From a virus (taxonomy: Duplodnaviria; Caudoviricetes): 60,018 nucleotides of DNA. The translations under genes and the position numbers were made by a program. The notes under the pieces are model-generated. The model made no database searches, had not been told where the DNA came from, and saw only the letters and a list, made by a program, of their open reading frames with translations. Positions 6,962 to 58,497 of the stretch are shown piece by piece. How positions within the stretch are numbered: position 1 is the first letter of the stretch; every line of letters starts with the position of its first letter. The stretch spans positions 1 through 60,018 of the IMG/VR virus record IMGVR_UViG_3300007513_000043; one strand, 5' to 3'.

Positions 6962-7439
6962 TATGTGTTATGTTAGAGTCGAGGGAACTCCCAAACCGCA
7001 AAAAAGACACCGCACATCATCGGTAAACGGGTACATTAGAAATTATGACCCCTCATCAAAGGATAAGAGTATTTTTGAAAAGAAACTTACTCGTAATAAT
7101 CCGAAGTTACTCACTGGAGCGATTTCCCTCACTCTGACATTCTTTATGCCTAGACCTAAAAATCACTACAGAACTGGAAAATATCAAAATAAGCTAAAGA
7201 AGAACTCCCCAGTTTATCATTTGAAAAAACCAGACATAGATAATTTAATTAAGTTCGTACTCGATTGTGGAAACAGCATTTTATGGAAAGATGATTCTCA
7301 GATATTCCAAATTGAGGCACTTAAAAAGTATTGTAAATATCCAAGAACAGAAATAGAATATTGGGAGATACCATATGAAAATACAAAAAAAGGACTTGAA
7401 GGCTCTATCAGTAGTCAACACAGAGATACTGACTTATAA
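6936..7439 (+). CDS. rusA: RusA-family Holliday junction resolvase
   Basis: GTPKPQKRHR; KKPDIDNLIKFVLD...WKDDSQI catalytic motifs. Confidence 0.92.
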   Translation: MAIELNLNNMCYVRVEGTPKPQKRHRTSSVNGYIRNYDPSSKDKSIFEKKLTRNNPKLLTGAISLTLTFFMPRPKNHYRTGKYQNKLKKNSPVYHLKKPDIDNLIKFVLDCGNSILWKDDSQIFQIEALKKYCKYPRTEIEYWEIPYENTKKGLEGSISSQHRDTDL

Positions 7440-8196
7440 TGAGAACTGGAAAGATAAGTATATAAATCCAGAGTTACTATCTAAGGATTGGAAACTATCA
7501 GTAGATGAGTATACAACCAATGGAGTTGGAAGGGAGATTTTTGTGTTCCCTTGTTTTTCTCAACAATATTGCAAGGAAATCATTGAGCTTGCAGAGGGAT
7601 TGGAGCAGTGGTCTTGCGCAAGGCATCAAAATTATCCAACTTATGACATAGAACTAGAGTGGGTTGGGGCGGAAAATGCTTATCTTCATTTTTTATCTGA
7701 ATATATTTATCCTCTTGCTATGTATGCCTTTGGAATGGGGGAGTGGGAAGAGGAGACGGCTACAATAGTTAGAGAATATAAAAACAATCCAGCAACACTG
7801 ATAGCAGAGACTTTTCTTGTTAAATATGATGCAAAAAAGGTATCAAAAAAAGAAAACCACGAAGAGTATGGGGACTGCAAAATGTCCTTTCTACCAACGC
7901 ATATTGATGACAGCGTTGTTAGTATGCTTATTCCCATAAATGATAATTATATGGGCGGAGGGACAAAGTTCCCAAAACAGAACGCAACATTGAGACCCCC
8001 AGCTGGTAGTTGCATTTTGTTTCCCGGGGGCATAACACATCCTCACGGAGCAAAGCTTGTGACAAAGGGTACTAGATATGTTATTGCCTCGTTTATTAAT
8101 ATTGTAAATCAAAATGGAGACGGCTTTGATTGGACTGGTAAGTTGTTAGCTAAAAACTCAAGGGAGGCTGAGACAAAAGCATATGACAGAAAGTGA
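7375..8196 (+). CDS. 2OG-Fe(II) dioxygenase, procollagen lysyl hydroxylase (PLOD)-like domain
   Basis: HID...H...R triad; FPCFSQQYCKEII, YPTYDI, GGGTKF, FPGGITHPHG, GTRYVIASF resemble the PLOD LH domain. Confidence 0.85.
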   Translation: MKIQKKDLKALSVVNTEILTYNENWKDKYINPELLSKDWKLSVDEYTTNGVGREIFVFPCFSQQYCKEIIELAEGLEQWSCARHQNYPTYDIELEWVGAENAYLHFLSEYIYPLAMYAFGMGEWEEETATIVREYKNNPATLIAETFLVKYDAKKVSKKENHEEYGDCKMSFLPTHIDDSVVSMLIPINDNYMGGGTKFPKQNATLRPPAGSCILFPGGITHPHGAKLVTKGTRYVIASFINIVNQNGDGFDWTGKLLAKNSREAETKAYDRK

Positions 8197-10299: not shown

Positions 10300-13200
10300 T
10301 TACCAGTTTATGTTTCTTCTTTTTCGTCCCTTATTAAATCCACCTTGATGTTGTTCTGGGTTTACCCTATTTTGAGTACCCCTTTTTTCTTTCATTTTTT
10401 GTTCTCTAATCCTCTTGTTTCTAACCGCTCTGCTATCCTTTGATTTTTGGTAATCTTCAGCTTGTTCTTTCGTATGACCCGGACCTCCCATTATTTTCCT
10501 AACAAACTGCCACCAAGTCCTTTTTTCATCTGTGTCTAGCGCATAATAATCATCCCAACCAGCTTGAGTCATAAGATTTCTAATAACATTAATTTCATCG
10601 TGGTCTTTTCCAAGAAATCCCTCTGCTATATTTATAGCATAATCAAGTCCAACCATTTGTTTCCTACTTAAAGACGAAACTGTCCTTCCAGCATTCCTTA
10701 TTACTCTAATATAACCCTTGTCTCTCTCCTCTAATGTAATATCTCCGCGTTGTGCCTCCCCAGTAAGGGCGAATATATCAGTAAGTATATTACTCGCGTC
10801 TCCAGCTAAATCTATAACTTGACCCAATAAACCACCATAACTAACCGTTAAGTTGCTAACCCTATATCCCCAGCCATATTTTTTCCTATATCCAAACATA
10901 CGATTAAGAGTCTCTTCAATGAGCATCATAGCGGTTAAGCGCACTGCAACTCCCCTTAAGCCAGCAGTAAATTTATTCCAATCCCCAGAACTTTCGTCAT
11001 ATTTATGCCTTCCTCCTAAGTTTGTGGTAATAGGTAGACCGTGGTATAGGGTTTGAAAATCTTGCACAAATTGCCCTAAAAATCGCAGTGGGTAATTTTG
11101 GGCAAACATAGGTAAACGTCCTATTGGGCTATGTTCAAGTAGAGACCTTTCCATTCTTTGATATCTAAATTGTGATTTTTCCGCAGCAACATAATCGGCG
11201 ATTTGCAACGCAACATATTTCATATTTCCAGCATCTATTTCGTGTAACAATCTGTTTTGCATACTTAAATCAAGACCGTCAAAGGATATTCTGCCCCTTA
11301 TATCTGGAAAAGAAACCTCTCCAGCCTTATATGACTTTAACATAGGCAACACTCTATTGTAAGTTTCATTAAAATCTACCCACCTACTTGATAAATCGAC
11401 CAACCCATAAATTCCCTTAAACTTGTCTAGTGCTTCTTTGGCTCCGGGAATACTGTCTATCCAACCAGACGCACCAACTCTTAAATACTCGTCCATAAGA
11501 GCTGATTGACTGCTCGTATTAGACATAAAGAATTGCTGAACATCTTTATCTGCGTTAAGAAAAGTAGAGCTTTTCCTAATGTTTAAAGCTCCTCTCCCAA
11601 ATGACTCTTTTATTATATTTTGAAGAGCAGAGGGCATATCTTGTATATTCACAGAGGTTAAACCCATAAGTACTTGCATTTTATTTCTTCCCCATTTTGT
11701 AGGGTTAGATAGAGTTGCAGCCATAAGCTTTCCAACAAACTTGCTTACTCCAGATTCAAATAAATCTGATGGATTAACTGTTAAGTCATTGTGCATTACA
11801 TTATATAAATCTTCTCTCATAGCCTCTGGGATTAAGCGATGATTAACCATTTTCATAAAATCGTAAACAATATCATCTATAAATAAAATGTTACTATCAG
11901 AATTTAATTTTCTTGTAAGATTCGATAAGGCATTGCCACCCCTTTCTCGCACGGCATCTCTGTCTTGTGCTTGTAATATTCCTTTGCTTAGACCCATATG
12001 GGAATTGGAATTCATTTCTTGTTTTTTTATGTCTGCGAGTTGAGGGGTGTAATTTTCCTTTATAAATCCTTCAACACTTGTGATTGCGTTTATAAGTCCC
12101 TTAAAATCTCCACTATCATAATACTCATCTAGCATCTCTAAATCTGCTTTTTCTACTCCGGGAATGTGAGTAGCATCGCTATTTCTGTATTGCTGGTATC
12201 TGTTAATTGCAATATCTCTTTGGTAGATTGGATTTTCATATATTTCACTCAAAGCATTGTTAATCTTGTGTGCATCTTCACTTAAATCACTATATTCCAA
12301 TTCGCCATTTCTATAGTTTTGTATTTGTTGCCCCACAGCCTCGTGAACATCTCTTATGTCGTTAAAGCCTAACTCTCTTAAAACCTTATTCATAGGTTCC
12401 ATTAATTCTTCTCTATATAAGTCTCTTCTGCCCTTTGCATCTCTATAGTCAATCCAAGTCTGATAAACTGGGAGAACTGGAACCATTCTCTCATATTTAT
12501 CAAAAGCTCCCGAAGTTCTATTTATTAAATATCCCCATCTTGAAACCTTTTGCCTTAACGAAGGATTCATACCTTTCAATGGCAAGTGCTTTGGTGCTAT
12601 CTTAACATTTTTATCTAATATTTTTTGTAAATCTGGGTCTTTTACCTTATTTCTTCTAAAGTCACGAATTTTCCTTTGTTGACCAACTGTTATATGCTCT
12701 TTTAATGTCTTCTTGTCTGCTCTTCTGAAATCAAGACCTCTTTTCATTCTTTTTGCAATAACCTTATCATTTAACATATCAAAAGCTCTTTGTCTAGTCT
12801 GGAAAGACGATAAAGCCATTTGATAGTATAGCATCATAGTCTCTGCTAGTGGATTGCCTTTTTGAGCTTCAGCAAATAATTGCTTTAGATTAGTAATTTG
12901 CTTTTTAGATGCGTCCACCATAGGAACTTGTTTAAAGAAAAACTTTTGAATATCTTTTAAGTCTTGATGAGTAGCTCTAGCTTCGTGCTGAACATATTTT
13001 CCGCCACCAGCGTGTATTTTCTCTCCAAGTAAATACCTTTCTGCTATTTTTATTCTAGCAAGAGCCTTTCTATTATCAACCCTTCTTTGTTCTGGCTTAC
13101 TCCTAAGCCCTTTCATATGTTCACTAAAAGAAATTTTATTCCCCTTTGAATCTACCATCTCTATACTCAACCCTAGTTTAGGATTTTTAATATAATCGAT

Positions 13201-16200
13201 AACAGCATCTTCTGTTTTTCTATATATAGGATTCTTTCTTAAGCTTTCTCTATTCTTATTAAACCAGTTTTTCATTTGCGCCCAAACTCTTTTAAACCAA
13301 TCTTTGGTTTTTTTGCCAAAGCTTTTTGGGTCACTCTCAAATTTCTTATATTGTTCTTTAAAGTTTTTAGCTGTTATACCAATCTTTTCACCAGCCGATT
13401 TAACATATTTTGGAAGGTCATTATATACAAAATGCCCAGCATCCACAAGACCCCTTCTTAGTAATCGCATATTTTGTGGTGTAAAACCTAACATACCAGC
13501 CTCAATACTATTAAAGTCTGACGCGAGGTCTTTATTCTTAAGACCTCCCGCCGACTTATCTTTTAGGCTCTTCTCTGAGGCTAATTTTAATGGTCCTTTA
13601 CCACTTTCTAGAATAGCTTGCTTTTCATTTTTATTTAGGTCTTCGAATTTTTTTCTTTGAATAGCTTTAACGCTGCTTTTACCAGAGATTCCGGGCTGTT
13701 TTCTTCCCAAAATTCCTTCGATTCTCTTATCATTGAATCCTCGTTCTTTTGCAAGTTTGATGAATTCTTGTTTGTAGTCTGTTTCATTTATACTCTCTCC
13801 TTTTATTCCATATTTACCATATAATCTTTTTTGTGGGAACCATATTTTAGCTTGTGCATCTGCTACTGTAGGCTCTCCACTTAACTTAACAACCCTCTCC
13901 ATTATACTTCTATATCTATTTCTCTCTCCACCACCTCCCGGAGCTTCTTTAGGAGCGTTAATATGTTCATTTAAGTTTTTAGCTCTTTTATTTAAAATTG
14001 TATCCTTTTTAAAACCACCCCTTTCATAAACCCTATGAACTTCTTTTGCTATATCTATCATAGCGGCATCATCTTTTAAAACATCTCTAGTAATTCCATA
14101 TTTTTCTCTAGCAGACTTATTACTTCTTATTGCATTCTTAAAGTTTTTTAATTGTTTTGTGTAGTCTCTTCCGAAATCCTTTCCTTTCCCAGCTTCGGGC
14201 AATAAATCACCGGTAATTCTTCTCATATTTCTAATGAAATGTAAGTCCATCGTCAATGGTTTCCCGTTGCCTTGGATATTTTGGAAGAAGGCACCACCTA
14301 CTTTTGGTCCAAATATAGAGCTACCCATAACCTTTGTATCTAATGTTTCACCACTTATAGCCTTAATACCAGCATCTCTTAATTGTCTTACTGTAAATTC
14401 TGTATTTAAAAATCTGTGTAGTCTTTCCTCACCCCAAATTTCTGAAAGTTTATTATAAGTTTTAAAAGACTTTCTCATTGCTGGCATCTCCTTACCAGCT
14501 CCCATAGCTTGTTTTTCAGCTTTACTTAAGTTCTTTCCAAAGTTCTCATCGAATTTGCCATTTTTTAAATAATACTCATATTGTTGCATAGCTATTTTAC
14601 TATTAGAGGGAACTCCTTGACCATTACTTGTTATAGCAAGAACTGCATTGAAAGCAGTCTCTTTTGTAGGGTTATTTTTCATTTGTGGATAAATTTCTCT
14701 AGCTATTTTTAATGCACTTTGCATTTTTTCGCTATACCAACCATCTGCATTCCACTCTCTTTGATTCTCTCTTGCTATCTCACTTGCTATTACTTGCGCT
14801 ACAATTTCATTAGACTCTGGAGTATCTTGTCTTAAGTCTATTCCAAGCTCTTTTTGTATTTTTAAAGATTTTTGAGTAAGATATTTTGATAAGTCGGAAA
14901 CATTCTTAAACTGAGGGACTGGCTCTTTTGCATCAAAAACATCTTTTGAGGACAACTTATCAGCAATAATTTTCTTCTGCTTTGCGGGGATTGCTCCAGC
15001 TTTTTTAATAACCGGCTTAGCAAGACTTTGCATCGCTTTAATCTTTTGGGCTGGTGTTAAAGGCTTTCCTTTTGCATCTACTTCTTCTATTGAGGCACCT
15101 ATCTTAGGGTTTTTAAGATATTCCTTGATATATCCTTTAGCTTTTCCATAGAAATTTTTGAGATTGTTCCACACTTTATTAAAGAACTTTCCAGCGCTAG
15201 ATTTAGTTTCTCCAGACCAGTTGCTAAAGCGTTCTTTAAAATTATTAGCATTAACGCCAATTTTTCCACCAAGTTTTTGCAAATGTTTCGGCAAATCATT
15301 ATAAACATATCTTCCTCCTCCTATTAATACATCGGCTGCATTTTTTATATTTTGTGGTGTAATAGGACCAGAGCCAACCTCAAATCCTTTTCCAACTGCT
15401 TTCACAGCTAAATCTGTTTCGAAATCTCTTAATTGTTCCTTAGTTAATTCATCTACGCTATCAACTCCGTATTTATCGTTTAAATCTTGTTCTAGATTTT
15501 TACTTAACTTCCAATCTTTTCCATATTCTCTTTCTATAACAGCTTCATCTATTCTTTGTGATAAAGTTTTAGGAGCTTCCTTTTTAGAAACTTTCGTTTC
15601 TTCAGCTAAACCTTTAGCCATAATTCTTTCATTTTCTTTTTTAGCTATAAATTTGGCTTCAGAAAATGCTCTGTCTTTAGCATTCAAATATAAATCTTTT
15701 TCTTTTTTAGTTAAAGGTCTTACTTTACTAAAACCAACTTCCTTGCCACCTACCATCGCTACATATCCTTGTCTCTTCTCATCCCAAGTAGAACTTGTTG
15801 GTTGGTCATATTTTTGTTCTATTTCTCTTTTTTTATCTTCCAGTTCTGATAATTTATCAATTAACTTTTGAGCTTTAGGAGTTAGGTCTCCTAAGAATTC
15901 GTCTCTAATTTCATCAGTTGACATACTCTCAATAGATTCTTTTACATCTGCAATCTGTTTATCTATCGTAGATAATTCAGTAGGAGCTTTCTTTTTAACT
16001 TTCGTCTTTGGAACTGCTACAACACCAGAGGGTTGAACTTTCGGTGCTGGTTTTGGAGTTTCTTTTGGAGCTAAATCAAAATTCCCTTTGTCGTCTATTT
16101 TTGTTCCGGCAGGTAATTCAATAGTTTTGCCTCCAGAAATAATTTGTCTTGTTTTGTCTCTTAACTCTATACCAGCTTTTTCACTTTTAACTGGAATATT

Positions 16201-19200
16201 ATCAATATTCTCTCCACGTGGTCCTAATAACTTAACATTATGGTAATTATTTGAAGCAGATGGTGGCTCATATTTAACATTAAATACTTTCATTATACTC
16301 TTAGGTCTGAAACCCATACCAAATAAAAGACCATCAGCCATTGTAATTGAAAAATCTCCATTTAAAACCTCAGTCCAAAAATTTACATCTTTCCCAGCCT
16401 TAAGCATAGCATCAGCAAGTGCCCTATCGCTTCCTTGTATTTTATCATATTTATCTGGGTGAATTTTCTTAAGTATATCTTTTATGATTTCTCTTTCTTT
16501 TTTATTCCATTTAATCTTATATTTATCTTTTTTGAAGGCAAAATCTTCTATATTTTTAAAACCATTGGTTACCATACCAATTCCTTTTAAACCAGCTATG
16601 GTTGCTAACGCGTGGGCATATTCTCCATTACTAGGCATATTTAAACCCTTCCATTCCCCAGTTCTTATTAGTTCACCAAGACTGGCATCAGACATTACAA
16701 ATCCTAAAGTTTCAGTACCAAGCCCAGATGCAGATGCTCCAACTCCTTCAAATAGTTTATATCCCGCACTACTCATATTCATTCCAGTTTTTTGACCTAA
16801 GTATGCAACAGCAGTGCCAAACAATCTACTACCAAAGGCACCAGCCGCTGGTAGTAATGAGCCTACTGCTGCTCCAGAACCATAAGCTTTTAATGCTTCT
16901 CCAAATTTAACATTATACACTCCGTCTTCAGCCATTTGATTCGCCAAACTATGAACACCAAAAAAAACACCTAATTGATTAGCCGATATTGCAACTTTAG
17001 TACCTTGTTTAGATAATGTTTTGCTTAATTCTATAGCGGCAGCTTTAGTTGCTTTATTTATACCGCCTTGTATTCCCTTTCCAGCAATAGATGATGCTGA
17101 AGTATAAGGTACTCTACCACCGGTCATTCTCGATATAAACGCTGCTGCGCTTTCTTTTGTCTTAACAAGCCATTCCGCTGTTTTAACAACAAGTGGTCTA
17201 GGTAAGATTTTACCAGCATCAATAGCCTTACTTAAATTAAAGCCTTTCTTTGATAAATCTAGACCTTTAGGAACCTTACTTACAGCTCTAGTTATACCGT
17301 TATTCATCAATCCAAGTGGACCTCTTAAAGCATACATATCAGCAACTATTCCTAATGTTGCCCCAATACCTCTATGCCAATCAGTAACTCCTTCCCCGGG
17401 ATTAACATCCCATATACTCATAGCTCCAGCTGACCTATCCCATTCCCCAGTTTTTTCATTGTATTTACCAGTCAGACTATTTTGATGGTCGTAAAATGCC
17501 CATTTAACTTGATTATTTGAATGATTATGATTGTTGGTAAATATACTTGAAAGCATTTTTCCAATACCAAACTGCTCTTGACTCCAGTATCCAGCATCAA
17601 GATGACCTATTACTTCTGGAATAGCATCAACCCACGATATTCCACTTTTATTCCTATCTATTGTCTCCCCTTTTGAATTAATATTATCCATTCTCATACT
17701 AGAACGAGGAATATTATAACCATCTCTTTCAAGCAAAGACCTTGCCTCTAAAGTGGAAATTTCTCCATTAGCCCTTTTCTGATTTAAAGCCTTTATAAAT
17801 TCCATATTAAATTCATCGTGATAAGATTGAAGTCTTAATTTTCCTCTTTTCCTTTCAACGTCATCACCGGGGTCAAAAAGATTACCTATACCATTAACCG
17901 TTCTTTCAATAAACGATGTCTCCATTGCCTCATCAATAGCAAGACTTGTTTCTAGCATCTTATCTGGCGAATCAACATTTACTTTAGGGTATGCACTTAA
18001 TAAATTTTCATTATAAGCTATAAGCTCTTCTACTGATGAAGTATCTTTTGGAGACATAGGACCACTAGTAGGAATGAATCTATCTGTACCGGGAACTTGA
18101 ACTAAACTTGAGGCAGAACTTATTCTAAATCTATCATCTGTATTTGTTATCCAAGGGTCTGGCTCAAAGCCCTCTTTATTAGTTAAATTTATACCATATT
18201 TATGAGAATTAATAGCTCCGGGTAGCCAGCTATACTTATTCCTTAAAGAATAGTCTGAATCATACATAGAATGTATATCAAAAGATTGGAGCTTTTTTTC
18301 TATTTCTTCATCATTGAAACCGCCAAAGTTTTTCAATTGCGCTTTATAGTCTTCCCTAGCTTCTCCGCTTATAATTTGTTCTGGACTATATACTCTTTCA
18401 ATTCCAGTCGTATAAATATCATCCCTTCCTCCAGTTCTTCTTGCATCTCTTGATATTTCATCATCCTTGGCAAAACTTAGATATCCAGCCCCAGTACCAA
18501 CTGACTCCCCATAATCACTTTCGACAAAACCAGCTTCAGATAATTTCTTTCTATTAACAACAGCCCATTGGTCTGATGTATAATTATTTACTGGGTTAAC
18601 TAAAACACCATTTTCATCTCTCTTAGCATCAATTCTTGCTTCCATTTCCGTAATTTTATGGTTTGGCAACTTTTTAAGCCACGCATCATTATGAATGATA
18701 TTAGTAGAACCATCGGGCATAGTCATCTCTACATAGTCTGGTGTTTCATAATCTTTATTCCATAAGTTCGTAAATGTAGATATATTGCCTTGACCTGCCT
18801 CTGCGCTAACTTGCTCCCAACTTAGCGTGTTTCTAAAATCATCACTATCCATATCCCCTACTTGATTGACATACCATTTAAGTTCTTGAGTCTCTGGGTC
18901 ATATCCAAAATCTCTAACAGTATCAAATTCATCAAAGTATTTTGGGTCTTTTATTTCTGGATTCCAATCACCTATACTTTCATTATATACTTTCTGAACA
19001 TCTTCGAATGGGAGGGTTCCATTTAATATACCATTTCTTGTAGTCTCTTCTAAATGGTCAGCTCTTGCACTATTAACATACTCTTTAAATAGCTTTACAT
19101 TCTTTTCATCTCTAGCTTTAGTGAATTGTTGGCTTAAGGGTTGCTTATCTTCTTGTTCGAATCGATTTATTTCGTCTTGAATAGCCCTATCCGACTCGGC

Positions 19201-19347
19201 TTTTTGACGCATCTTTTCCGCTCTTGCCTTATTTAGAACTTTTTGAGCAATACTCGTTTCTTCTAGCTTAGCTTCTTGTTCTCTTCTTTGCTTTTCTTTT
19301 TGATGCTCGAGTTTTGCTGCTTCTTGATACTCTTGTAGTAAACTCAT
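10300..19347 (-). CDS. giant internal virion/DNA ejection protein with an embedded HhH-GPD-like domain
   Basis: 3015 aa at the end of the late operon; Gly/Ala-rich hydrophobic helices; GPKVG...MDLHFIRNMRRITG motif. Confidence 0.7.
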   Translation of the reverse strand: MSLLQEYQEAAKLEHQKEKQRREQEAKLEETSIAQKVLNKARAEKMRQKAESDRAIQDEINRFEQEDKQPLSQQFTKARDEKNVKLFKEYVNSARADHLEETTRNGILNGTLPFEDVQKVYNESIGDWNPEIKDPKYFDEFDTVRDFGYDPETQELKWYVNQVGDMDSDDFRNTLSWEQVSAEAGQGNISTFTNLWNKDYETPDYVEMTMPDGSTNIIHNDAWLKKLPNHKITEMEARIDAKRDENGVLVNPVNNYTSDQWAVVNRKKLSEAGFVESDYGESVGTGAGYLSFAKDDEISRDARRTGGRDDIYTTGIERVYSPEQIISGEAREDYKAQLKNFGGFNDEEIEKKLQSFDIHSMYDSDYSLRNKYSWLPGAINSHKYGINLTNKEGFEPDPWITNTDDRFRISSASSLVQVPGTDRFIPTSGPMSPKDTSSVEELIAYNENLLSAYPKVNVDSPDKMLETSLAIDEAMETSFIERTVNGIGNLFDPGDDVERKRGKLRLQSYHDEFNMEFIKALNQKRANGEISTLEARSLLERDGYNIPRSSMRMDNINSKGETIDRNKSGISWVDAIPEVIGHLDAGYWSQEQFGIGKMLSSIFTNNHNHSNNQVKWAFYDHQNSLTGKYNEKTGEWDRSAGAMSIWDVNPGEGVTDWHRGIGATLGIVADMYALRGPLGLMNNGITRAVSKVPKGLDLSKKGFNLSKAIDAGKILPRPLVVKTAEWLVKTKESAAAFISRMTGGRVPYTSASSIAGKGIQGGINKATKAAAIELSKTLSKQGTKVAISANQLGVFFGVHSLANQMAEDGVYNVKFGEALKAYGSGAAVGSLLPAAGAFGSRLFGTAVAYLGQKTGMNMSSAGYKLFEGVGASASGLGTETLGFVMSDASLGELIRTGEWKGLNMPSNGEYAHALATIAGLKGIGMVTNGFKNIEDFAFKKDKYKIKWNKKEREIIKDILKKIHPDKYDKIQGSDRALADAMLKAGKDVNFWTEVLNGDFSITMADGLLFGMGFRPKSIMKVFNVKYEPPSASNNYHNVKLLGPRGENIDNIPVKSEKAGIELRDKTRQIISGGKTIELPAGTKIDDKGNFDLAPKETPKPAPKVQPSGVVAVPKTKVKKKAPTELSTIDKQIADVKESIESMSTDEIRDEFLGDLTPKAQKLIDKLSELEDKKREIEQKYDQPTSSTWDEKRQGYVAMVGGKEVGFSKVRPLTKKEKDLYLNAKDRAFSEAKFIAKKENERIMAKGLAEETKVSKKEAPKTLSQRIDEAVIEREYGKDWKLSKNLEQDLNDKYGVDSVDELTKEQLRDFETDLAVKAVGKGFEVGSGPITPQNIKNAADVLIGGGRYVYNDLPKHLQKLGGKIGVNANNFKERFSNWSGETKSSAGKFFNKVWNNLKNFYGKAKGYIKEYLKNPKIGASIEEVDAKGKPLTPAQKIKAMQSLAKPVIKKAGAIPAKQKKIIADKLSSKDVFDAKEPVPQFKNVSDLSKYLTQKSLKIQKELGIDLRQDTPESNEIVAQVIASEIARENQREWNADGWYSEKMQSALKIAREIYPQMKNNPTKETAFNAVLAITSNGQGVPSNSKIAMQQYEYYLKNGKFDENFGKNLSKAEKQAMGAGKEMPAMRKSFKTYNKLSEIWGEERLHRFLNTEFTVRQLRDAGIKAISGETLDTKVMGSSIFGPKVGGAFFQNIQGNGKPLTMDLHFIRNMRRITGDLLPEAGKGKDFGRDYTKQLKNFKNAIRSNKSAREKYGITRDVLKDDAAMIDIAKEVHRVYERGGFKKDTILNKRAKNLNEHINAPKEAPGGGGERNRYRSIMERVVKLSGEPTVADAQAKIWFPQKRLYGKYGIKGESINETDYKQEFIKLAKERGFNDKRIEGILGRKQPGISGKSSVKAIQRKKFEDLNKNEKQAILESGKGPLKLASEKSLKDKSAGGLKNKDLASDFNSIEAGMLGFTPQNMRLLRRGLVDAGHFVYNDLPKYVKSAGEKIGITAKNFKEQYKKFESDPKSFGKKTKDWFKRVWAQMKNWFNKNRESLRKNPIYRKTEDAVIDYIKNPKLGLSIEMVDSKGNKISFSEHMKGLRSKPEQRRVDNRKALARIKIAERYLLGEKIHAGGGKYVQHEARATHQDLKDIQKFFFKQVPMVDASKKQITNLKQLFAEAQKGNPLAETMMLYYQMALSSFQTRQRAFDMLNDKVIAKRMKRGLDFRRADKKTLKEHITVGQQRKIRDFRRNKVKDPDLQKILDKNVKIAPKHLPLKGMNPSLRQKVSRWGYLINRTSGAFDKYERMVPVLPVYQTWIDYRDAKGRRDLYREELMEPMNKVLRELGFNDIRDVHEAVGQQIQNYRNGELEYSDLSEDAHKINNALSEIYENPIYQRDIAINRYQQYRNSDATHIPGVEKADLEMLDEYYDSGDFKGLINAITSVEGFIKENYTPQLADIKKQEMNSNSHMGLSKGILQAQDRDAVRERGGNALSNLTRKLNSDSNILFIDDIVYDFMKMVNHRLIPEAMREDLYNVMHNDLTVNPSDLFESGVSKFVGKLMAATLSNPTKWGRNKMQVLMGLTSVNIQDMPSALQNIIKESFGRGALNIRKSSTFLNADKDVQQFFMSNTSSQSALMDEYLRVGASGWIDSIPGAKEALDKFKGIYGLVDLSSRWVDFNETYNRVLPMLKSYKAGEVSFPDIRGRISFDGLDLSMQNRLLHEIDAGNMKYVALQIADYVAAEKSQFRYQRMERSLLEHSPIGRLPMFAQNYPLRFLGQFVQDFQTLYHGLPITTNLGGRHKYDESSGDWNKFTAGLRGVAVRLTAMMLIEETLNRMFGYRKKYGWGYRVSNLTVSYGGLLGQVIDLAGDASNILTDIFALTGEAQRGDITLEERDKGYIRVIRNAGRTVSSLSRKQMVGLDYAINIAEGFLGKDHDEINVIRNLMTQAGWDDYYALDTDEKRTWWQFVRKIMGGPGHTKEQAEDYQKSKDSRAVRNKRIREQKMKEKRGTQNRVNPEQHQGGFNKGRKRRNINW

Positions 19348-24860: not shown

Positions 24861-27800
24861 TTATCCTCCGTTATTTACTGTTATGTCAGCATATGCTGTA
24901 TAAATTTGGTCAGTCATCATAGTTCTTTGGTCAGTTGTTTGATAAATCCCCGCATCACTTGAGCCATCATAAACTACATCATAAGTATGAGCTCGTGTTC
25001 CGTGCCAAGTGTTTCCATCCGCCATTACTGGTTCGTCCGGATATCGATTATTTGTACTGCTATACGGATGGTAATTTTCAGTAGTATGAATTATCCTCCA
25101 TTTTATAGAATTATTTGGCAATGTCTTTAGATACTCAGCAAAGTTATAGCACTTACTCGTGGTATCAGTATCCCACAATGGACCTAAAGTAGCTTGGAAG
25201 AACCACATAGATTCTCGGTCAGAGCTACCAGTAGCATTCCCAAAACCGTGGTTAGTCCTAATAAGGTCATATGGAGTCGAAGAAAGTGCTAGATTAACTT
25301 CGTGCTCATATGCATAGTCCCAAACAGCTTGTCCAGTTGTGTGCCATATTCTTAAAAATCTATCGCCTTCCAAATGACCAACTGCACCACCAGAGCCCGG
25401 TATTATTTCTAATCTCATCTGGCAAATCCTCCAACTTTGTTCTGGATGGTCTATTTTAATTCTAAAATCTATCTTAGCACCAATTCTTACATCGTTTATA
25501 GTATGCCAACCCCACTCATTGTCATTTATACCGAATTCAAACTCTTCTTTTTGATGCATAAGAGGAACATATTCACCATTCCAATCTTGTATTTGAGGTG
25601 TTACATTTGCTAGCTTATCTGCCCTCAGCACTCCATTTACAAATAAATTCGAACCATCATATGCAATACCACTTCCAGTTTCACCAGTAGAATTTACTGT
25701 TCCAACAGCAAATGAGTCTTTATCTATATACACACCAGCAGTTGTATTTGTTGCTGAATCTTTGCTGGCAGTTTGTATTTTAGCACCAGTTCCCAATGTT
25801 AAAACATCGCTTATTGTCGCTGCATTTGCGAATATAGATGTAGTATCTATATGGTTAGCGCTTATTTGCCCAGTTTGTATCATATCTCCATCTATAATTG
25901 TTTGACCATATTCCTCTGTTTCAATCTTTATCCAATCTACTAGAAAATCTGGCTGGTCATCTGGGTTATTTACATCTGCTCCTCCGTCTGCTCTAAATGC
26001 TATCCCAAAATAACCAACATCATCGTGGAATTTGCCGGGGAGAGTAGCATCATTGCATATACCATCTGCAACATCATTTTCAACACTTGTTTTTCCTCTC
26101 ATATAATAAGTAATGATTTGCCAATTTTCATCAACATTAACACCAGATGCTCCAGTACCAGCCCAAGTAGGATAACTATCTGATGCCACTATTGCTCCAC
26201 TTGAATCATCCCAGTTGGCATAAGCGCTGTTTAGATAATGGTAACCCATAAAGCCAAATCTAATATTCTGGTCAGATGTAGCAGTTCCTCCGTCTACTAC
26301 TTTATATGCTTTTACTCTCATAGAGACTTTATATAAAATAAGAGGGTCAATTTTCACTCTTTGATTTCTCCAAGCATAATTGGTACCAATAGCAGTATTT
26401 TGTGCACTAGAACCACTTGTATCAAACAGTGCGTTATATGGTTGAGATGCACCATCCCACGTTTTACCAAATCTTAATGCCATACCGTTTTGAGCTTGAG
26501 CATCTGCTTTAAATATCGGAGTCACAACACCGGCAGTAGCAGAGTAATATTCAGATATAACTGTAGCTAGAGAGGAGTTGGAAAGTGATAAATTTAATGC
26601 CCCCGATGTAGCCATAGACCATTTTGTATGCCAAGGGTCTTCCCAATTAGATACATTAGTAAATACAGTACTACCATTTATTTCTATATGGTCACCACTT
26701 ATGGTTACTCCAGATGAAGCTACGTTTATAGCAGATATTATAGAATCATTATCGGTTAATACTTGACCACTTGTTAATGTTATTGTATCGGCGGCAATAG
26801 CTAAACTAGAAGAATGATTAGAGTTACTACTTGAGCCGACATCGTAAGTTTGCTCAAAAGCAAATTTACTAGTCCCACTATGACCTAACTTAAATATCAT
26901 TGTGCCTTCATCAGATAGGTTTTCTGTTATTTCCCACTTGTTGGTCCCGTCTATTGATATTCCGCATTTATAAGTACCTAAATTACCAATTTGCATAGCA
27001 TTTTCCATAAATCTTATAGATGAAGATGACCCAGAAAGAGTCATACTATCCAACACAATCTCACCCCTAAAAAAAGCATTCCCATCACTTTTTATAGAAA
27101 AATTCTTAGATGCTATCTCTCCGGAGTTTAAATCAAATCTTGTTCCTAAAGTAATATAATTAGTATCTACTACTGTCTCATCTATATTATTAGATTTAAT
27201 TATTCCGGTTGAAATATTATTTCCAGATATCTCTGTTCCGTAGGATGTTAATCCTCCAAATAATACTCCGTGAGTTTTGTTAAATGAAAATGAGACAAAT
27301 GCTGCTGGAAGATTGGTATTTGGAGAGGTTTCATTTGGTTCTATATATCTATTGTGTTGTTCGTGACCATTACCTTCTCCCAACCCATATTGACCTACTA
27401 AAACATATGCAGTTTTTATATGGTCACCACTAGCAACTAATCCGGTATGAGCATACGGATTTGTAGCACCATACAATCTCATTGCAGCAACCAATCCCTC
27501 TGAGTCACTATCATCACTGCTTGCATCGACAAGAAGTTCTTGCCCAGTTAACATTATTACTAAATCTGTAGATACAATATTTGACCCATCTTCTAATTGA
27601 GTTTGTAAATTTAATATATCTGCAAGATTTTCCCTTCTTGTAAGTCCGTGAATAACATCATAAGTATCAAATAATTCTAAATGCCTAACATTTAAATCTT
27701 TATTAAGAACAAATAATAATAATCCGTGTGACTGAGAAGTTAATGGGTCTAGATTATCTAGGGTATTATATAGATAATTATCTAGATATGTTGTTTGTCC

Positions 27801-30800
27801 TATTGCTATCATTGTTTTGTTGTTCATTCCAGTACCACCGGGGGTAGAATAATTATGAGTTCCAATAGCGATACCGTTAACTATATCTATACCCTCTTCT
27901 GCATCGCCTAAATGAACATCTCCACGTATTTGTAAGCTTGGGTTAGTAGTAATACCATCACCGGGTTCCCATTTTAAACCAGCGCCATCTGTTCCAGATA
28001 TTGGATTACCATATAATTCAAGCTTACCAGTGCTATCCATATATGTTCGCCACGTCAACTCTCCAGAATTATCGTCATATGTCGAGTATCCAAAGTGCGG
28101 ATTATCAGATTGATTAATAAAATAAAATCCATCTTGTGTTGGAGTAGTATTTGTAAAAGACATCATAGTTGAAGCAGCATCTGCAGTTCCAACTGGCGAA
28201 TTATTCATTAAAGTAACATCAAAGTCAAGACTATCTGATGCATAAAAAGTGTATCGTGTATCCCTATCTGGCTCAACAGCTATTTTTCTATCTCCCATAG
28301 CAATAAAACTACCGGGGGCAGATGCAAATGTTCCTATTTGTGCCCATTCATTACCATTATCACCATAGTCATTCGCCATTACAAATACTGTCAATTCGAA
28401 TGGCACATTCGCAATATCATCAAAATCTGTTGAGTCTAATTCAAGAGTTACATATTCTTTGCCGTGATTTGGCACAGATAAATTATTTCTAGAATGTAGC
28501 AATATACCATTTGTACCTATATAAGCGTGTGAAACAGTGTTGGATAATGAGACAAAAGACTCTCCATCTTCTGGAAATGGAACCGGATAAATATTGAAAT
28601 TATTCTCATTTGCACTATGACCACCAGCACCATCTCCGCCGTATAAGTTTACAGCGGTGATACTAGAATCAAAGCTAACTACATTAACTGCATCATCTAA
28701 TTTTTTAACCCAGCACCATACAGAAAATACAGTGGTACCACAATATGCTTCATCGGCATCTACTGCTAAAGTTATTTTACTGTTAGGTTTATCGATACTT
28801 ACTTGTACTTTTACTCCTTGAGTTTCTGTGACAGCAACTTCGCCACCCCAATTATTAACATTCCAAACAGCTTGTCCTCCTTGTACACCATCAGCACCGG
28901 TATGTCCAGATAATAATGCTCCTTGTGTCCATCCAGTATCTTCTGACCAAGCTGGGCTATCGTGATTTGAATTAACCCAAGTTGCTACACTATAAAATGT
29001 AAATTCTCCAATTGCCGGAGTTGTTGCTTGAAGACTCCATCCAGTTGGAGTATTATTCATAACTCCAGAACTATTTACCGTAGCTCCCGCACCGGGAGTT
29101 CCAGCTCCATTAGCAGCAGATGTATTAGCATTCTTATATATAGTGAATGTTTTATATTCATTGCCGTCATCCCCATCGCTTCCCGGGGGACCTTGCGGAC
29201 CAACGAATTGTCCAGAATTCTCCCAAGAATCACCATCCCAAACAAATAAATGCCCAACATCTCCATTGTCTGCTAATTCTACTATATAAGCATCACCAGC
29301 TGTATTATTACTACTTGGCAAAGATGCTTCATCCGCAACAGTTCCTTGTATTTGAACCCCAACTCCGTCTGAACCATTTTGACCAGAGAATTGCACAATA
29401 ACTCCAGATGGATTTATATTAGTAGTGCCAGATGAATCTACCGTATATTCAGCAGATGTTACATAAATTTGTTGACTTGCACTTGGAGCAGATGCTGAAA
29501 AAGCCCAAGATAAATCTATAGTTGGTGTTGCATATGTTCCACTGAATGTTGGAACCGTTGGACCAGCTCCATATTCTGCTGCTGTTAAATTTTTATAGGC
29601 ATATACAGTTTTTAATCCGGGAGCTCCATCGCCACCATCTTGAAATATAATTTGAGGAGTTGACCAATCCCAATCAACGTCAGCAACTGTAATATCTGTA
29701 GTTCGGGCAACTCCACTAACTACATAACAAGGGTCACCATTAGTTGTTGGAATAGTATCAGTCCAACTATTATCTAAGTCAGTCAATTGACCAGTTTCGA
29801 AATTATAGTTTTGGGTTGTCGGTCTATCACCATCAACAAGAGCAACAGAACTCCTTCTATAAGCATTTACAAGCACAATGGTTTCACCATCTGTCCCAGC
29901 AGTACCAGTTTCTCCATCTAAAGACGCTATAGGATAAAATTGACCATCAACATTACTAGTACCTTGTTCTCCGTATGTATCTCCCACATCTTCAATAAGA
30001 AATGAAAAAATATCTCCGTGGTTATGACCACCAGCTCCTTGTTCTAAATTATAAGAACTATTAATTTTAAATCTATATGTTTCCCCAGTTCCTCCGTGAG
30101 TATAAGCCAAAACTGTCCCTATAGCACATTCGGTAGTGAAAAAATTATAATGGTCATATCCACTTTTATCAAATCTACTTATTATAATCTGATTTATATT
30201 CGCGTGCCAAGCAGTTATCCATTCGCCATAACTTGTACCGGTTACATAAGGATTTTGATTACTTAGTACATCTCGTTTAAAACCTATTTGACCATCTCCA
30301 GCACTACCTAAATCAAAATAGACTATATCATCGTGTTCGTATGTCCAACTCGCAGATAGTCCCTCAATTCCACTAAATTGCGCCGGAGTACTCCAAGCTC
30401 CAAATAATGTATAAGCATTAGTTCCTATATTACCTACAGTATTTTCTTGTACATAAACAGCTTGTGATATATATGTAAGCTGACCATCTCCCGGACTTGT
30501 AGGTATAGAACTCCACGTTTGTGGAACACCAGTCATTACTCCCTCGTTATTTATTGTAACAAGATTTGAATTTACATCGGCTGGTATAGATGCTGAATTT
30601 TTATATAAATAGTACACAGAGTAAACATTGCCCGGTTCACCTTCTGCTCCGGGAGTTCCGGGGTCACCTTGTGGTCCCGGGGGTCCAGTTATATTTCCAG
30701 CATTACCCCAGCTATTCCCATCCCAAATCCATAAGTCTCCAGTGTCTTGAACAATAAATGCATCTCCAATATCTCCACTATATGGTCCATTGGGATATCC

Positions 30801-33800
30801 TTCTAACTCTGTTGCAGTTGACGGCGATGGTCCTAAAATATTAACCGATGTTCCATCAGTTCCTTGGACACCACTCCATTGAGCAAATTCTGTTGGCTGA
30901 GTAATAGTTGTTGCTCCAGCACTATCTTGATTATATGTTGCAATTGCTGCATATATATTGTGGTCAACAACTAAGGTCGGTATTGTTAAACTCCAACCAG
31001 TAGGCGCAGCTGGAGATGCATAACTAGCAGAAAAATCATTTGGAACATCTTCACCGCTAGCTGCTGCTGATGTCATAAGTTTATATGCATAAACTAATTT
31101 AGGTCCGGGTAATCCATCTCCACCATCTTGCGTTAAAATACTTGGTGCTTCCCAAGTTAAAGATGTATCTGGAACAGTAATATCTGTTGTTGATGCTGGT
31201 GATGTTGTTACATAACAAGGGTTTCCATCTGCCGCTGGAATCGTAGTTGACCAATTCCCAATATTACTAATAGTATTGGTGCTAAAATTAAATTCTGAAG
31301 TATTCAAATCTGTTGTTACTGGTGCTGCGCTTCCTCTTTGATATAAAAATAACAATGCAATACTTGTTCCGGGGTCTCCATCACCTCCAACACCACCAGT
31401 AGCTCCTTGTGCTCCTTGCTCGGCATATTGAGTATTTACATTACAATCATTTCCAACACTAAGATTTCCACTACCAGCAATAAAATCAACACTATCAAAT
31501 GTCAATCTACCGTCATATTGAGAGTTATAATTCGGATTGGCATCTAGAATTTCAAATCTTACAAAAGTATTACTACCTTCTTTGCTTATTTGAAATACTT
31601 GTCCTTCCGGCATTGACTCAAGATAATTCCTTATATCAACACCATTTTTATCTTTAATATTTATAAGAAAACTAGCATTGTCACCGGGCGAATTATTAGC
31701 TAAGTTAGAAACATCCCAACTTGTATTTCCTTGACCAAATGTAAATTCACCACCATCTAAATTTGTCAAACCACTCTCTGTATAATCAAATGGAAAATTA
31801 ATACCAATAGCATCAGTGCCATCTGCCCCATCTGATGCGCTAAATTCAATAGGGGCAGTACCAGTACCTCCAGTGCTACCTACTTCATATAAAAATTGAG
31901 AAACCCAGATAATGTCGCCAGCACTTGTAGATACATTACCTAAATCATCATTCCAGCCGCCAGCACTACTAACATCAGGACTTGAGTAAGACCCAACAAA
32001 CGAAGGTGTGCTTGGCTGTGTTTCTGGTGGACTACCATTGTATGCATAATAAATAAATGGACCAGAATCACCAGTCCCACCAGTTCCTCCATCTGCTCCA
32101 GTAGCTCCAGTATATCCAGATAATTGAGAAGGGTATGTCCAATCTTCATCTATTGAAAAATTCCCAGCGCCTTCTGTCTGCTTCCAAGTAGATGTACTAA
32201 AAAATGTAAAATCACCAGCGGCTGGTGTTGCTGGTGTTAAACTCCAACCATTAGGAGCTGGGTTCATATCGCCATTTGAATCTACATTTACTGCTGCGTT
32301 ACTTGGTGTGCCGTTGGTAGCACCCACAGTAGCTGCATTTTTATATACTGTGAAAGATTTATATATATCAGCTGATGTACCAGTGCCCCCAGTATCTCCT
32401 TGTGCTGCTAATAAATCCCAATAAGTTGTTTGTGTCTCCGGGTTTTTATTTGTATTTGCTGGGGAATCTTTTATTGATACATATGAATTACTATTGTAAA
32501 ATACCGCATCATTAATTGAATATGTAGTTGCGGGATTCCAAGTTCCAAGCCAATCAACTGGAGAATTACCAGAAGACATAATTAAATCACCTCTTAATGT
32601 AACTGTGCCCTCAGAACCATCATAATGCAAATAAGAACCATTGCCAACTTCTGTTCCAACCAAGAAATCGAAATTGCCACCTCCATCTGAACCCATTCTT
32701 ATACCAACACCAGAGCCGGTTAATGTATCAAAGTCCGTGAATGTTCCGATATTTATAATTTGATTTTGTGCCTCTATGGATATATTGCTATTAGATATTT
32801 CATTAGATGATATTGCCCAACCATTTGTTGAATCACCTATATATCCTTCTTCTGCGTGTATTTTTCCTTTTAAATAAACATCTTCTGCCCACAAACCATA
32901 TGTATTAGCGGGTATACTTACACCAGCATAACTAATACCTTCAAGATTTCCGAGTCTTGCTTTTAACTTATTATTACTAGTCCAGTCTCCGATTGTATCA
33001 ACATCATTCCAAATATCTAAGAATGGAGCGCCACTATCTACTGAAGATAAATATAATCCCCCTCGTCTTGCAGCATCCCCAGTACTACCAATTCTTACAG
33101 CAGTTCTATTAACTAAGCTAAATGACCAAGTTCCAGTTATATCTGTTCCAGTGTTATCATAAACAGTTGCTTTAAATTGATTCGCATCTGCTACATCATC
33201 GTCTGTTACTATTAAATAATATTTATTATCTGTTCCATCGAAATCTTTCCATTCAAGAAGTAATATATCATCATCAGAAAATGGATGTGCATCTGTTGCA
33301 TCATCTGATGTTATTGTAAATATTCCAAAATTATTATTTCCATCTTGAGCTTGTACTGCTATTTTTGCTGCATCTGATACTATTAAACTACCATTAGTTG
33401 CTCTTATTTGATTTATAAGTAATTCGTGAACATTCATTGCCCCACGTACCATTAAATCTTCAATCTCTAATCTATATTTATCGCTACCTAAGTTAGTAAC
33501 TTCCCATCCAGACCCACCAGTAAAACCAGATGTAAATGTAACACTTCCAAGTGGAAGGTTGTCTAAAGTTTGAGCCCCAGCAACAGAACCAAATGTAATC
33601 TTTCCAGCAGAATTATAAAAGAATGCAGTTGTACCTCCACCGCTAGTACTTTTTAATTCAACCGTAGGAACACTTGCTTCAATTGACAGTTTACCATTTC
33701 CGGCATTTGTACCTATCCCTACTGCATTAAACTCTACATTATCACTTGTGCTTAAATTTTGCCCAGTATTATATTCAAGATGCGCATCTTTGATTGAATT

Positions 33801-50388: not shown

Positions 50389-50426
50389 AAGTTACGTAAG
50401 TTACGACTGTTCATTTTTAGATGCAA
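50389..50426 (-). promoter_or_regulatory. late promoter with TTACGTAA box
   Basis: TTGCAT-17bp-TAACTT followed by ACGTAACTT. Confidence 0.65.
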
Positions 50427-53289: not shown

Positions 53290-53325
53290 CATATGTAATT
53301 TACGTAACATTATGCAACTATCCAA
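53290..53325 (-). promoter_or_regulatory. promoter with TTACGTAA box
   Basis: TTGGAT-17bp-TAAATT; 22/23 identity to the 2751-2773 element. Confidence 0.65.
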
Positions 53326-58346: not shown

Positions 58347-58497
58347 AGAATACGAATTCATAGCCTCAGCACTTATGCTGGGGTTATGGTCTACATTAAT
58401 GTTTAACCATATGTTGAGAGGGCTATTGTGGACACCTCTCTTATTTCTCGAGATACTTTTAATAATATTAACATTCATAACTTGGAGGAGAATATGA
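58336..58497 (+). CDS. small two-TM membrane protein (53 aa, not in ORF track)
   Basis: MRNREYEFIASALMLGLWSTLMF...LLFLEILLIILTFITWRRI; overlaps both neighbours. Confidence 0.6.
   Translation: MRNREYEFIASALMLGLWSTLMFNHMLRGLLWTPLLFLEILLIILTFITWRRI

Follow-up and report, generated by a model that had tools for sequence, protein, structure and literature searches.

What is the function of the large conserved domain that sits in the middle of a 3015-residue protein of a tailed phage? The window analysed here, that is, the whole stretch of 60,018 bp, is the complete virus record IMGVR_UViG_3300007513_000043 (Duplodnaviria; Caudoviricetes), flanked by direct terminal repeats, and the protein is encoded by a giant open reading frame (ORF) at positions 10300-19347 of the minus strand, where 3015 codons are open. 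An initial annotation, made from the DNA letters, had seen at 13820-14760 of this ORF a segment resembling the HhH-GPD DNA glycosylases, the superfamily of endonuclease III (Nth), Ogg and AlkA, and had proposed that a base-excision-type enzyme is injected with the phage DNA. We arrive at a tentative reading of the same kind, in which a polyvalent virion protein carries, as cargo, a DNA-acting domain of a very divergent HhH-GPD type that is similar to a glycosylase or an apurinic/apyrimidinic (AP) lyase, and we put the probability of this at about 0.45. The evidence that carries it runs from the domain to the phage protein family DUF7178 (PF23802) and from DUF7178 to the HhH-GPD glycosylases.

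A conserved all-alpha domain is present at this position. Its extent by homology, hhalign alignments and an AlphaFold2 model place it at residues ~1502-1877 (~375 residues; 13717-14844, minus strand), limits that are slightly wider than those of the segment noted at the outset. When residues 1483-1882 were used as the query in a HMMER scan of 1.84 billion representative proteins, 1659 proteins (clusters) matched at E ≤ 1e-3, 1258 at E ≤ 1e-10 and 363 at E ≤ 1e-30, with the usual match spanning query residues ~20-395, which correspond to residues ~1502-1877 of the phage protein. Most of the 1659 clusters are giant phage proteins, and the resemblance of their domains is far beyond chance. By BLAST, residues ~1450-1900 are the only part of the giant protein that is common to nearly all of the 150 homologues listed, and just two of these, P0003 and P0004, share more than the domain with it.

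All of the sequence strings quoted in the initial annotation occur in the translation of the ORF: GWY at residues 1536-1538, AVLAITSNG at 1567-1575, GPKVGGAFFQN at 1680-1690, TMDLHFIRNMRRITG at 1699-1713 and ADAQAKIW at 1829-1836. The core motif, GPKVGGAFFQNIQGNGKPLTMDLHFIRNMRRITG, comprises residues 1680-1713 (14209-14310, minus strand) in the translation, the alignment and the model, and within it positions 14245-14304 of the minus strand translate to KVGGAFFQNIQGNGKPLTMD. This stretch begins with K1682 (14302-14304), a candidate Schiff-base lysine, and ends with D1701 (14245-14247), a candidate catalytic aspartate 19 residues further on; the loop GNGKPLTM lies between the two. A check of the codons placed both residues inside the core that had been drawn at 14208-14310. 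Three further motifs are recognizable in the alignments, all on the minus strand: an invariant W1537-Y1538 pair (the WY motif; 14734-14739), the motif LAITSNGxxVxxN at residues 1569-1582 (14602-14643), in which A1571, S1574 and N1582 are conserved, and a late helix, ADAQAKIW (13840-13863), in which Q1832, A1833 and W1836 are conserved.

The lysine and the aspartate, whose conservation among homologues the early reading depended on, are invariant in 39 of 39 aligned sequences. They are also among the positions at which the majority residue is found in at least 97% of 100 aligned domains, a set made up of the phage domain and 99 of the 150 listed matches, those that span the profile (the 51 partial ones were left out), and both are kept as well in all of 120 DUF7178 relatives (K96 and D114). 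About 20 other, mostly polar positions reach the same level: W1537, Y1538, A1571, S1574, N1582 and N1632 in the N-terminal half; G1675, G1680, G1684, F1687, N1690, T1699, R1710 and G1713 around the core; and P1803, R1809, Q1832, A1833, W1836 and Y1858 in the C-terminal part. A set of polar invariants consisting of S, N, K, T, D, R, Q and Y is typical of an active site, and the conservation shows a real, widespread and probably catalytic domain.

The first link in the argument is that to DUF7178. In the ESM Atlas, 25 of the 30 clusters nearest to the domain fell in sets in which PF23802 is assigned to 20-33% of the members. The PF23802 model itself has no match in the window at E ≤ 10, and its 27-bit cut-off is not reached there; in relatives of the domain from Mesorhizobium and Pararhizobium it gives subthreshold matches lying exactly over the K...D motif (E 7.3e-4, 0.083 and, at 23.3 bits, 6.6e-5; scores of 21.1-23.3 bits against the cut-off of 27). 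For profile comparison, a DUF7178 set was assembled from 120 small proteins, 118 of which are labelled PF23802, and 27 viral loci. A second DUF7178 subfamily was represented by 20 distinct ORFs of ~170-210 residues from loci L105-L125, exact duplicates and the long fusion proteins of L103 and L104 being left out, and the two subfamilies are related to each other with an hhalign probability of 99.5%. When the 100 domain sequences were aligned with the merged DUF7178 profile, the match had a probability of 85.7% and an E value of 5.4e-6 over 109 columns. In this alignment the WY, A-x-TS...N and G-x-K...D-x-W-x-x-R motifs are collinear, the lysine falls on the lysine and the aspartate on the aspartate, and the LAITSNGxxVxxN motif is matched with FAATSINTSLKSN of DUF7178. 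Because of the merged-profile match and the collinear motifs, we consider that the domain is very probably an enlarged member of the DUF7178 superfamily.

DUF7178, which corresponds to the PHROG family phrog_3842, consists of small phage proteins (~170-250 residues) for which no function is recorded. The domain has in common with it the invariant WY, the A-x-TS...N motif, the signature G-x-K-x(17-18)-D-x-W-x-x-R and a late Q/D-L-x-A-x-x-W helix. At ~375 residues, however, the domain is about twice as long as the 193-position DUF7178 model, being longer by ~60 residues from the TS...N motif to the lysine and by ~85 after the aspartate helix, and it is embedded in the 3015-residue protein, whereas DUF7178 proteins stand alone. 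DUF7178 is rare in Alphaproteobacteria (one of 151 genomes above the cut-off), and a tblastn search of deposited phages with one DUF7178 protein gave no match, as did a blastn search of deposited phages with the domain region.

The second link, that from DUF7178 to the HhH-GPD glycosylases, was assessed with profiles built for several branches of the superfamily. A search for homologues seeded with Escherichia coli Nth returned sequences that were 86-99% identical only and was unusable as a profile; the Nth/MutY/AlkA-like profile combined E. coli Nth with 14 proteins taken from the genomes of five bacteria. The Ogg2 profile contained 38 proteins, of which 8 came from Bacteroidota, where 9 of 61 genomes exceeded the cut-off, and 30 from archaea, where a match was present in 59 of 151 genomes and 30 loci entered the set; two Ogg2-like loci found by scanning viral contigs stand outside it. 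Together these 15 Nth/MutY/AlkA-like and 38 Ogg2 sequences formed a 53-sequence HhH-GPD profile. Against Ogg2, hhalign gave 33.2% (E 4.5e-4, 35 columns) for DUF7178 subfamily 1 and 54.7% (E 1.2e-4, 64 columns) for merged DUF7178. Against the 53-sequence profile, the probability was 78.3% (E 1.8e-5, 61 columns) for merged DUF7178 and 76.0% (E 2.3e-5, 103 columns) for subfamily 2, and it reached 90.8% (E 1.2e-6, score 46.3) over 143 columns, equivalent to Nth 26-171, when DUF7178 was merged with the domain family into a profile in which 108 sequences were kept, 58 of them from the domain family.

In these alignments the G-x-K motif falls on Nth G118-R-K120 and the aspartate on Nth D138, residues of which K120 and D138 are catalytic in E. 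coli endonuclease III. In bifunctional glycosylases, such a Lys/Asp pair forms a Schiff base and activates it. The lysine and aspartate of the phage domain are thus placed, via DUF7178, at the positions of the catalytic pair to which the initial annotation had assigned them, with 19 residues from one to the other and a Gly/Pro-containing loop before the aspartate; the corresponding spacing is 18 in DUF7178, Nth and Ogg2. The hairpin in the alignment requires a four-residue insertion. Past the aspartate helix, the invariant columns of both DUF7178 and Ogg2 show Y-x3-E-x21-W.

Controls argue for the specificity of this match. On 29 independent archaeal HhH-GPD proteins, four DUF7178-based profiles gave E values of 0.0017-0.0088 with the register unchanged, compared with an E value of 0.28 for the reversed profile, and reversed profiles score 14.5-22.3. 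Fifty block-reversed decoys scored 13.6 +/- 1.5 against Ogg2 (maximum, 16.8), where the real scores were 31.7-34.6, and the same 50 decoys scored 16.2 +/- 1.4 against the Nth/MutY/AlkA-like profile (maximum, 18.5), where the real scores were 25.0-28.8. In an earlier decoy set in which some blocks were left unreversed, 1 of 40 decoys reached the real score, as is expected when the true segment survives. Controls inside the superfamily gave 99.4% for Nth and MutY, 95.7% for Nth and the AlkA-like proteins and 75.2% for MutY and the AlkA-like proteins, and true cross-family pairs against Ogg2 gave 94.9% for the Nth/MutY/AlkA profile, 76% for Nth, 7.6% for the AlkA-like proteins and 1.6% for MutY. 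The weak scores of the last two pairs mean that genuine superfamily links can be equally weak with these profiles. The AGOG family (PF09171) had no match in 201 archaeal genomes or in the controls and so stands outside the profile comparisons. As a lead only, the nearest named ESM Atlas clusters, once DUF7178 was excluded, were viral ones in which Ogg-HhH is assigned to 17% and 46% of the members and one in which AGOG is assigned to 10%, with scores of 0.75-0.78.

Several results weigh against this reading, beginning with the direct sequence tests. A Pfam scan of the domain at E ≤ 10 returned five weak matches to unrelated families and none to an HhH-GPD-type family (PF00730 or PF22175), and a six-frame search of the window with PF00730 gave no match at E ≤ 10, although the model was positive in all 14 control genomes. 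Direct hhalign comparisons of the domain family with the HhH-GPD profiles (Nth, MutY, AlkA-like and Ogg2) gave 0.1-0.6% (E 0.1-0.56), and the domain family alone was never significant against any HhH-GPD profile. A motif-only piece was aligned lysine on lysine and aspartate on aspartate, but with a score of 9.6 and a probability of 0.1%. A C-terminal piece placed P1803 on P168 and W1836 on W202 of Ogg2 at an E value of 0.093, which is not significant alone. In PDB sequences, phmmer and hmmsearch runs with the domain, the first alignment and the whole protein gave nothing usable. One alternative alignment put K1662 at the place of the HhH lysine; its column is not conserved, and this candidate was rejected. 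A reading of the motifs as those of a Ser-Lys peptidase was likewise dropped for want of support.

The intermediate family has weaknesses of its own. None of the 120 DUF7178 proteins matches the Ogg-HhH, HhH-GPD or AGOG Pfam models at E ≤ 10, an hmmsearch of PDB sequences with the DUF7178 profile gives only an oxidoreductase (E 0.034), and a server run of hhalign comparing DUF7178 subfamily 1 with the 8 Ogg2 sequences gave 9.9% (E 0.0032). The link is transitive and was drawn from shallow profiles (effective number of sequences, about 4.6-6.1) without secondary-structure scoring; about 60 hhalign comparisons were made, a number that the best E values survive and the marginal ones do not. The 3015-residue protein also departs from its own family, with W replaced by H at 1703 and E by Q at 1839, both near-invariant positions. 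Packaging into the virion is itself a matter of probability, read from gene position and from the analogy with polyvalent proteins.

The predicted structure also has to be set beside the profile comparisons. The AlphaFold2 model of the domain, built from a 39-sequence alignment, is all alpha, with about 20 helices, a predicted local distance difference test (pLDDT) score of 94.2 and a predicted template modelling (TM) score of 0.90, and small beta elements lie ahead of the core motif. At the place of the supposed hairpin, DSSP assigns a helix at 1675-1679, a one-residue break and a helix at 1681-1691, followed by a loop and then a helix at 1702-1712. In the model of a core fragment of 206 residues (1577-1782; pLDDT, 80.7), which excludes the helix preceding the TSNG motif, one continuous helix occupies the same place, so a classical helix-hairpin-helix is not predicted. 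A Foldseek search of 350,542 PDB chains with the domain model gave no match at E ≤ 1e-3; the best match had an E value of 0.099 and a TM score of 0.11, and the 49 matches listed, which include no glycosylase, were terpene synthases, transporters and designed proteins. For the core fragment, the PDB gave 22 matches at E ≤ 10; their lowest E value was 3.1, and again no glycosylase was among them. The structural match to the HhH-GPD fold that had been foreseen as a check on the idea was therefore found in the PDB for neither the whole-domain model nor the core fragment, and a two-lobed, all-alpha fold that can be superposed on endonuclease III, Ogg or AlkA was not recovered. The HhH-GPD assignment has accordingly held up in part: profile homology via DUF7178 speaks for it, and the direct sequence tests and the PDB fold search speak against it.

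These objections give room to other explanations. The domain could have a new all-alpha fold, that of an enzyme or effector, with no relation to HhH-GPD, in which case the likeness to G-x-K...D-x-[WH]-x-x-R is due to convergence or chance, and it could then act on a nucleotide, RNA, protein or the envelope as an uncharacterised cargo domain of the "large polyvalent-protein-associated" (LPD) kind. A model with a pLDDT of 94 that has no structural neighbour in the PDB is what such a fold would look like, and the absence of the hairpin from the models, the lack of a direct sequence or profile link to HhH-GPD and the lack of even weak glycosylase Pfam matches in the 120 DUF7178 proteins all point the same way. 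Its partners in giant proteins, namely ART-PolyVal, LPD38, LPD22 and proteins named for RelA/SpoT, have varied targets, and several LPD domains look enzymatic with an activity that is not known, as parts of PMC5512222 describe them. We nonetheless regard an unrelated fold as somewhat unlikely, because the match of DUF7178 to HhH-GPD extends to an E value of 1.2e-6 in the catalytic register, lies far above decoys and was replicated on independent sequences, the spacing from lysine to aspartate is alike, a protein language model independently names Ogg-HhH and AGOG, and solo relatives of the domain have neighbours from DNA metabolism. Another explanation accepts a glycosylase-type DNA-binding fold by descent and supposes that it has become non-catalytic, serving as a module for DNA binding or genome-end handling or as a structural hub of the ejection machinery. 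A core mechanical role would fit with the domain being the sole part of the 3015-residue protein that nearly all of the 150 listed homologues share. The two substitutions at near-invariant positions and the repeat pair that brackets the domain also speak for this explanation. This pair consists of an upstream copy (residues 1323-1441; 15025-15381, minus strand) and a downstream copy (residues 1949-2083; 13099-13503, minus strand) of a ~120-135-residue repeat; the two copies contain YVYNDLPK...KNPK[IL]G.SIE.VD, are 36% identical (pairwise E 3e-27) and could be sites of processing, arms that bind DNA or a cassette for recombination. The two nearest homologues, P0003 and P0004, have this bracket around the domain as well, so that the pair is conserved in three of three close relatives. 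A lysine, an aspartate and about 20 mostly polar invariants across 1659 clusters are nevertheless more typical of catalysis, solo forms of ~190-440 residues occur in replication or modification neighbourhoods and bacterial chromosomes, and the placement of the domain at 0.04-0.76 of the length of giants (61 proteins over 2000 residues) resembles shuffled cargo; a purely non-catalytic role is thus quite improbable.

A cell-wall-degrading module, similar to a lysozyme or a transglycosylase and helping the tail to cross peptidoglycan as in other internal virion proteins, seems very improbable. The small beta elements before the core motif recall lysozyme-like folds, Pfam recognises no peptidoglycan hydrolase in the giant protein, and one solo relative (L011) adjoins a Peptidase_M15 gene. 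On the other hand, no lysozyme-like structure was among the Foldseek matches and there was no Pfam match, the domain has no invariant Glu and the near-invariant E1839 position is a Gln in the 3015-residue protein, and the solo relatives are mainly found beside DNA-metabolism genes. A lysozyme-like reading of the motifs themselves found no support and was dropped.

Taken together, the best explanation of the profile comparisons is that the DUF7178 superfamily is a very divergent HhH-GPD branch, closest to the Ogg2 and endonuclease III types. We think it rather probable that DUF7178 descends from HhH-GPD glycosylases with the Lys/Asp pair kept, the profile comparison speaking for this and the fold search against it, and the motif reading of the initial annotation appears to be better than the direct database tests suggest. 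The idea of an enzyme is plausible on these sequence grounds. That the domain of the giant protein itself excises bases or cleaves AP sites is a possibility for which we would give a little less than even odds. In the HhH-GPD-type reading, K1682 would head the helix that corresponds to the second helix of the helix-hairpin-helix, and D1701, 19 residues on, would cap the next helix after the Gly/Pro-containing loop. The domain would bind DNA and act as a base-excision and/or AP-lyase-type enzyme. Because it lies inside a cysteine-free giant protein of the polyvalent kind in a virion gene block, it probably enters the virion and is delivered together with the genome, or else is set free from the giant protein, and from this position it may act before phage genes are expressed. 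As the initial annotation proposed, such an injected enzyme might attack methylated host DNA or repair the incoming genome. A bolder hypothesis, which we consider unlikely, would have the whole DUF7178 superfamily, with its small solo phage proteins and the enlarged form in at least 1659 clusters, be an unrecognised phage-specific branch of bifunctional HhH-GPD glycosylase/AP-lyases, one member of which here enters the cell inside a 3015-residue ejected protein and acts on DNA before phage expression. There it might strip bases that are damaged or were installed by defence systems from the incoming DNA, or it might nick host DNA at bases that the phage lacks.

The distribution of the domain is that of a mobile part. 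The 150 listed homologues are proteins of 193-3610 residues in which its placement is highly variable; in the 61 proteins over 2000 residues, it starts at between 0.04 and 0.76 of the length, as would be expected of a shuffled cargo module. In 16 giant homologues, Pfam detected LPD38 in 7, ART-PolyVal in 5, LPD22 in 2 and radical SAM, HATPase_c and ASCH domains in one each. A Foldseek search of BFVD found 14 viral proteins at E ≤ 1e-3, all from uncultured phages, several of which are named for polyvalent-protein domains, ART-PolyVal or RelA/SpoT. The domain is also present in the 3125-residue giant of Limnohabitans phage DC33 and in a 2792-residue giant, the two belonging to podovirus records of ~39 kb, where it is encoded upstream of the tail-fibre genes, the giants being located between a protein annotated as an M23 peptidase and the tail fibres; outside the domain, BLAST found nothing in common between these giants and the 3015-residue protein. 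Two further frames, of at least 2121 residues (L103, 2878-9240) and at least 1604 residues (L104, 2878-7689), extend to the ends of their IMG/VR contigs and carry a short DUF7178-type domain at about residue 1041. These fusions indicate that giant proteins are able to carry the short form as well as the enlarged one.

Solo relatives of ~190-440 residues occur away from virion genes, in replication or modification neighbourhoods and in bacterial chromosomes. On a 41-kb viral contig (L099), such a gene is flanked by genes for a DNA methyltransferase, an exonuclease and a DNA polymerase; in a prophage-like region of Methylobacterium (L010), it adjoins DNA polymerase A and a C5 methylase; and in Mesorhizobium (L015), it adjoins a methyltransferase and DprA. 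In Pararhizobium (L011) the neighbour is the Peptidase_M15 gene mentioned above, and the context of L114 is uninformative. The Mesorhizobium sp. chromosome encodes the enlarged domain as a solo protein of 438 residues (L015, 9773-11089) among DUF5623, DUF6927, methyltransferase and DprA genes, a region with the look of a mobile element and not of a virion module, and the chromosome of Pararhizobium sp. encodes it as a solo protein of 658 residues (L011, 9434-11410).

The 3015-residue ORF ends the minus-strand late (virion) block of the phage, downstream of genes for the terminase (53310-54896), a P22-like portal (50401-52683), the major head protein (47770-49431) and a tail-fibre-like protein (34679-38029). 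The same block contains a second giant ORF (24861-34679, minus strand) encoding 3272 residues with 10 cysteines, and four smaller ORFs lie between the two giants. The two giant genes make up ~31% of the genome. The 3272-residue protein has no Pfam family and no PDB relative, and BLAST finds it similar neither to the 3015-residue protein nor to any of the 150 domain homologues nor to the giants that the ~39-kb podoviruses encode. Among the early genes of the plus strand are those for a Sak annealing protein, a PD-(D/E)XK nuclease and a 2-oxoglutarate (2OG)-Fe oxygenase, along with one for an ArdC-N plus MPTase-PolyVal protein and one for a peptide deformylase. With its ArdC-N domain and MPTase-PolyVal zincin (57351-58346; Pfam E 4.8e-15 and 9.6e-20), the fourth of these proteins gives the phage a polyvalent module of the anti-restriction type that stands by itself, and its gene adjoins that of the peptide deformylase (58428-58964). 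The 2OG-Fe(II) oxygenase domain (7375-8196; E 2.4e-6), which is encoded close to the Sak and PD-(D/E)XK genes, may be a nucleic-acid or protein hydroxylase or demethylase.

Apart from the domain, the 3015-residue protein offers few clues. Searches with its full length found neither a Pfam family (E ≤ 1) nor a PHROG (E ≤ 0.01), PDB sequences yielded no relative, and no second recognisable domain was detected in these searches. Glycine-rich, moderately hydrophobic stretches are found at residues ~660-1010 and ~2790-2860, and no segment is hydrophobic enough for a transmembrane helix (none above 1.3 in a 19-residue Kyte-Doolittle window). The protein has no cysteine and no HExxH motif. Among 77 homologues over 1500 residues, the median is 0 cysteines per 1000 residues, and HExxH is present in 46. 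Since the motif is absent here and present in those 46, the protein may lack a self-processing zincin that many of its relatives seemingly carry.

If the remote link is true, a very common orphan phage domain, comprising DUF7178/phrog_3842 and an unmodelled enlarged form with more than 1600 clusters, gains a hypothesis of base excision or AP lysis by a Lys/Asp pair, and DNA glycosylases join the activities that phages may deliver with the genome inside polyvalent virion proteins. The case would also be a worked example in which a confident AlphaFold model and Foldseek were blind and profile-profile comparison via an intermediate family was not. Should the link fail, few unannotated modules of giant phage proteins would still be as widespread as this one, and its confident model would be one to which no solved structure is a neighbour. 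A literature search found nothing describing DUF7178, ejected virion DNA glycosylases of phages or HhH-GPD domains in polyvalent proteins, the LPD domain lists of PMC5512222 being outside that search, and the word glycosylase does not occur in the part of the PMC5512222 text on polyvalent proteins that was covered.

Compared with known HhH-GPD enzymes, namely the Ogg2-type 8-oxoguanine glycosylases (PF22175) and E. coli Nth (PF00730), the domain is alike via DUF7178 (78-91%, up to 143 columns), in the spacing of 18-19 from lysine to aspartate, in the Gly/Pro-containing loop before the aspartate and in an aspartate that caps a helix. It differs in that it has no direct Pfam, hhalign or Foldseek match to them and contains large insertions, and in that a longer segment, G-S-x-I-F-G, predicted to be helix-like, stands where the hairpin would be. 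Because the 3015-residue protein has no cysteine, the domain would also have no Fe-S cluster. By gene position, the protein compares with the internal or ejection proteins of podoviruses, among them T7 gp16. The giant N4 gp50 is another such protein, as noted in parts of PMC5512222. The 3015-residue protein has no sequence similarity to any solved internal virion protein, and the likeness lies in its being the last large gene of the virion block, in the short genome, in the P22-like portal, in the absence of cysteine, in the glycine-rich, moderately hydrophobic stretches and in the domain that it shares with the giants of the ~39-kb podovirus records. Polyvalent proteins, in the parts of Iyer et al. 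(2017, PMC5512222) that describe them, are multidomain effectors that are encoded with virion genes and are probably injected, with LPD38 restricted to the phage type. The 3015-residue protein differs from those described there in having no Pfam domain at E ≤ 1 and no HExxH peptidase motif, and it resembles them in its giant size, in its place among the late virion genes, in a domain that shifts its positions and partners and in homologues that carry LPD38, ART-PolyVal and LPD22.

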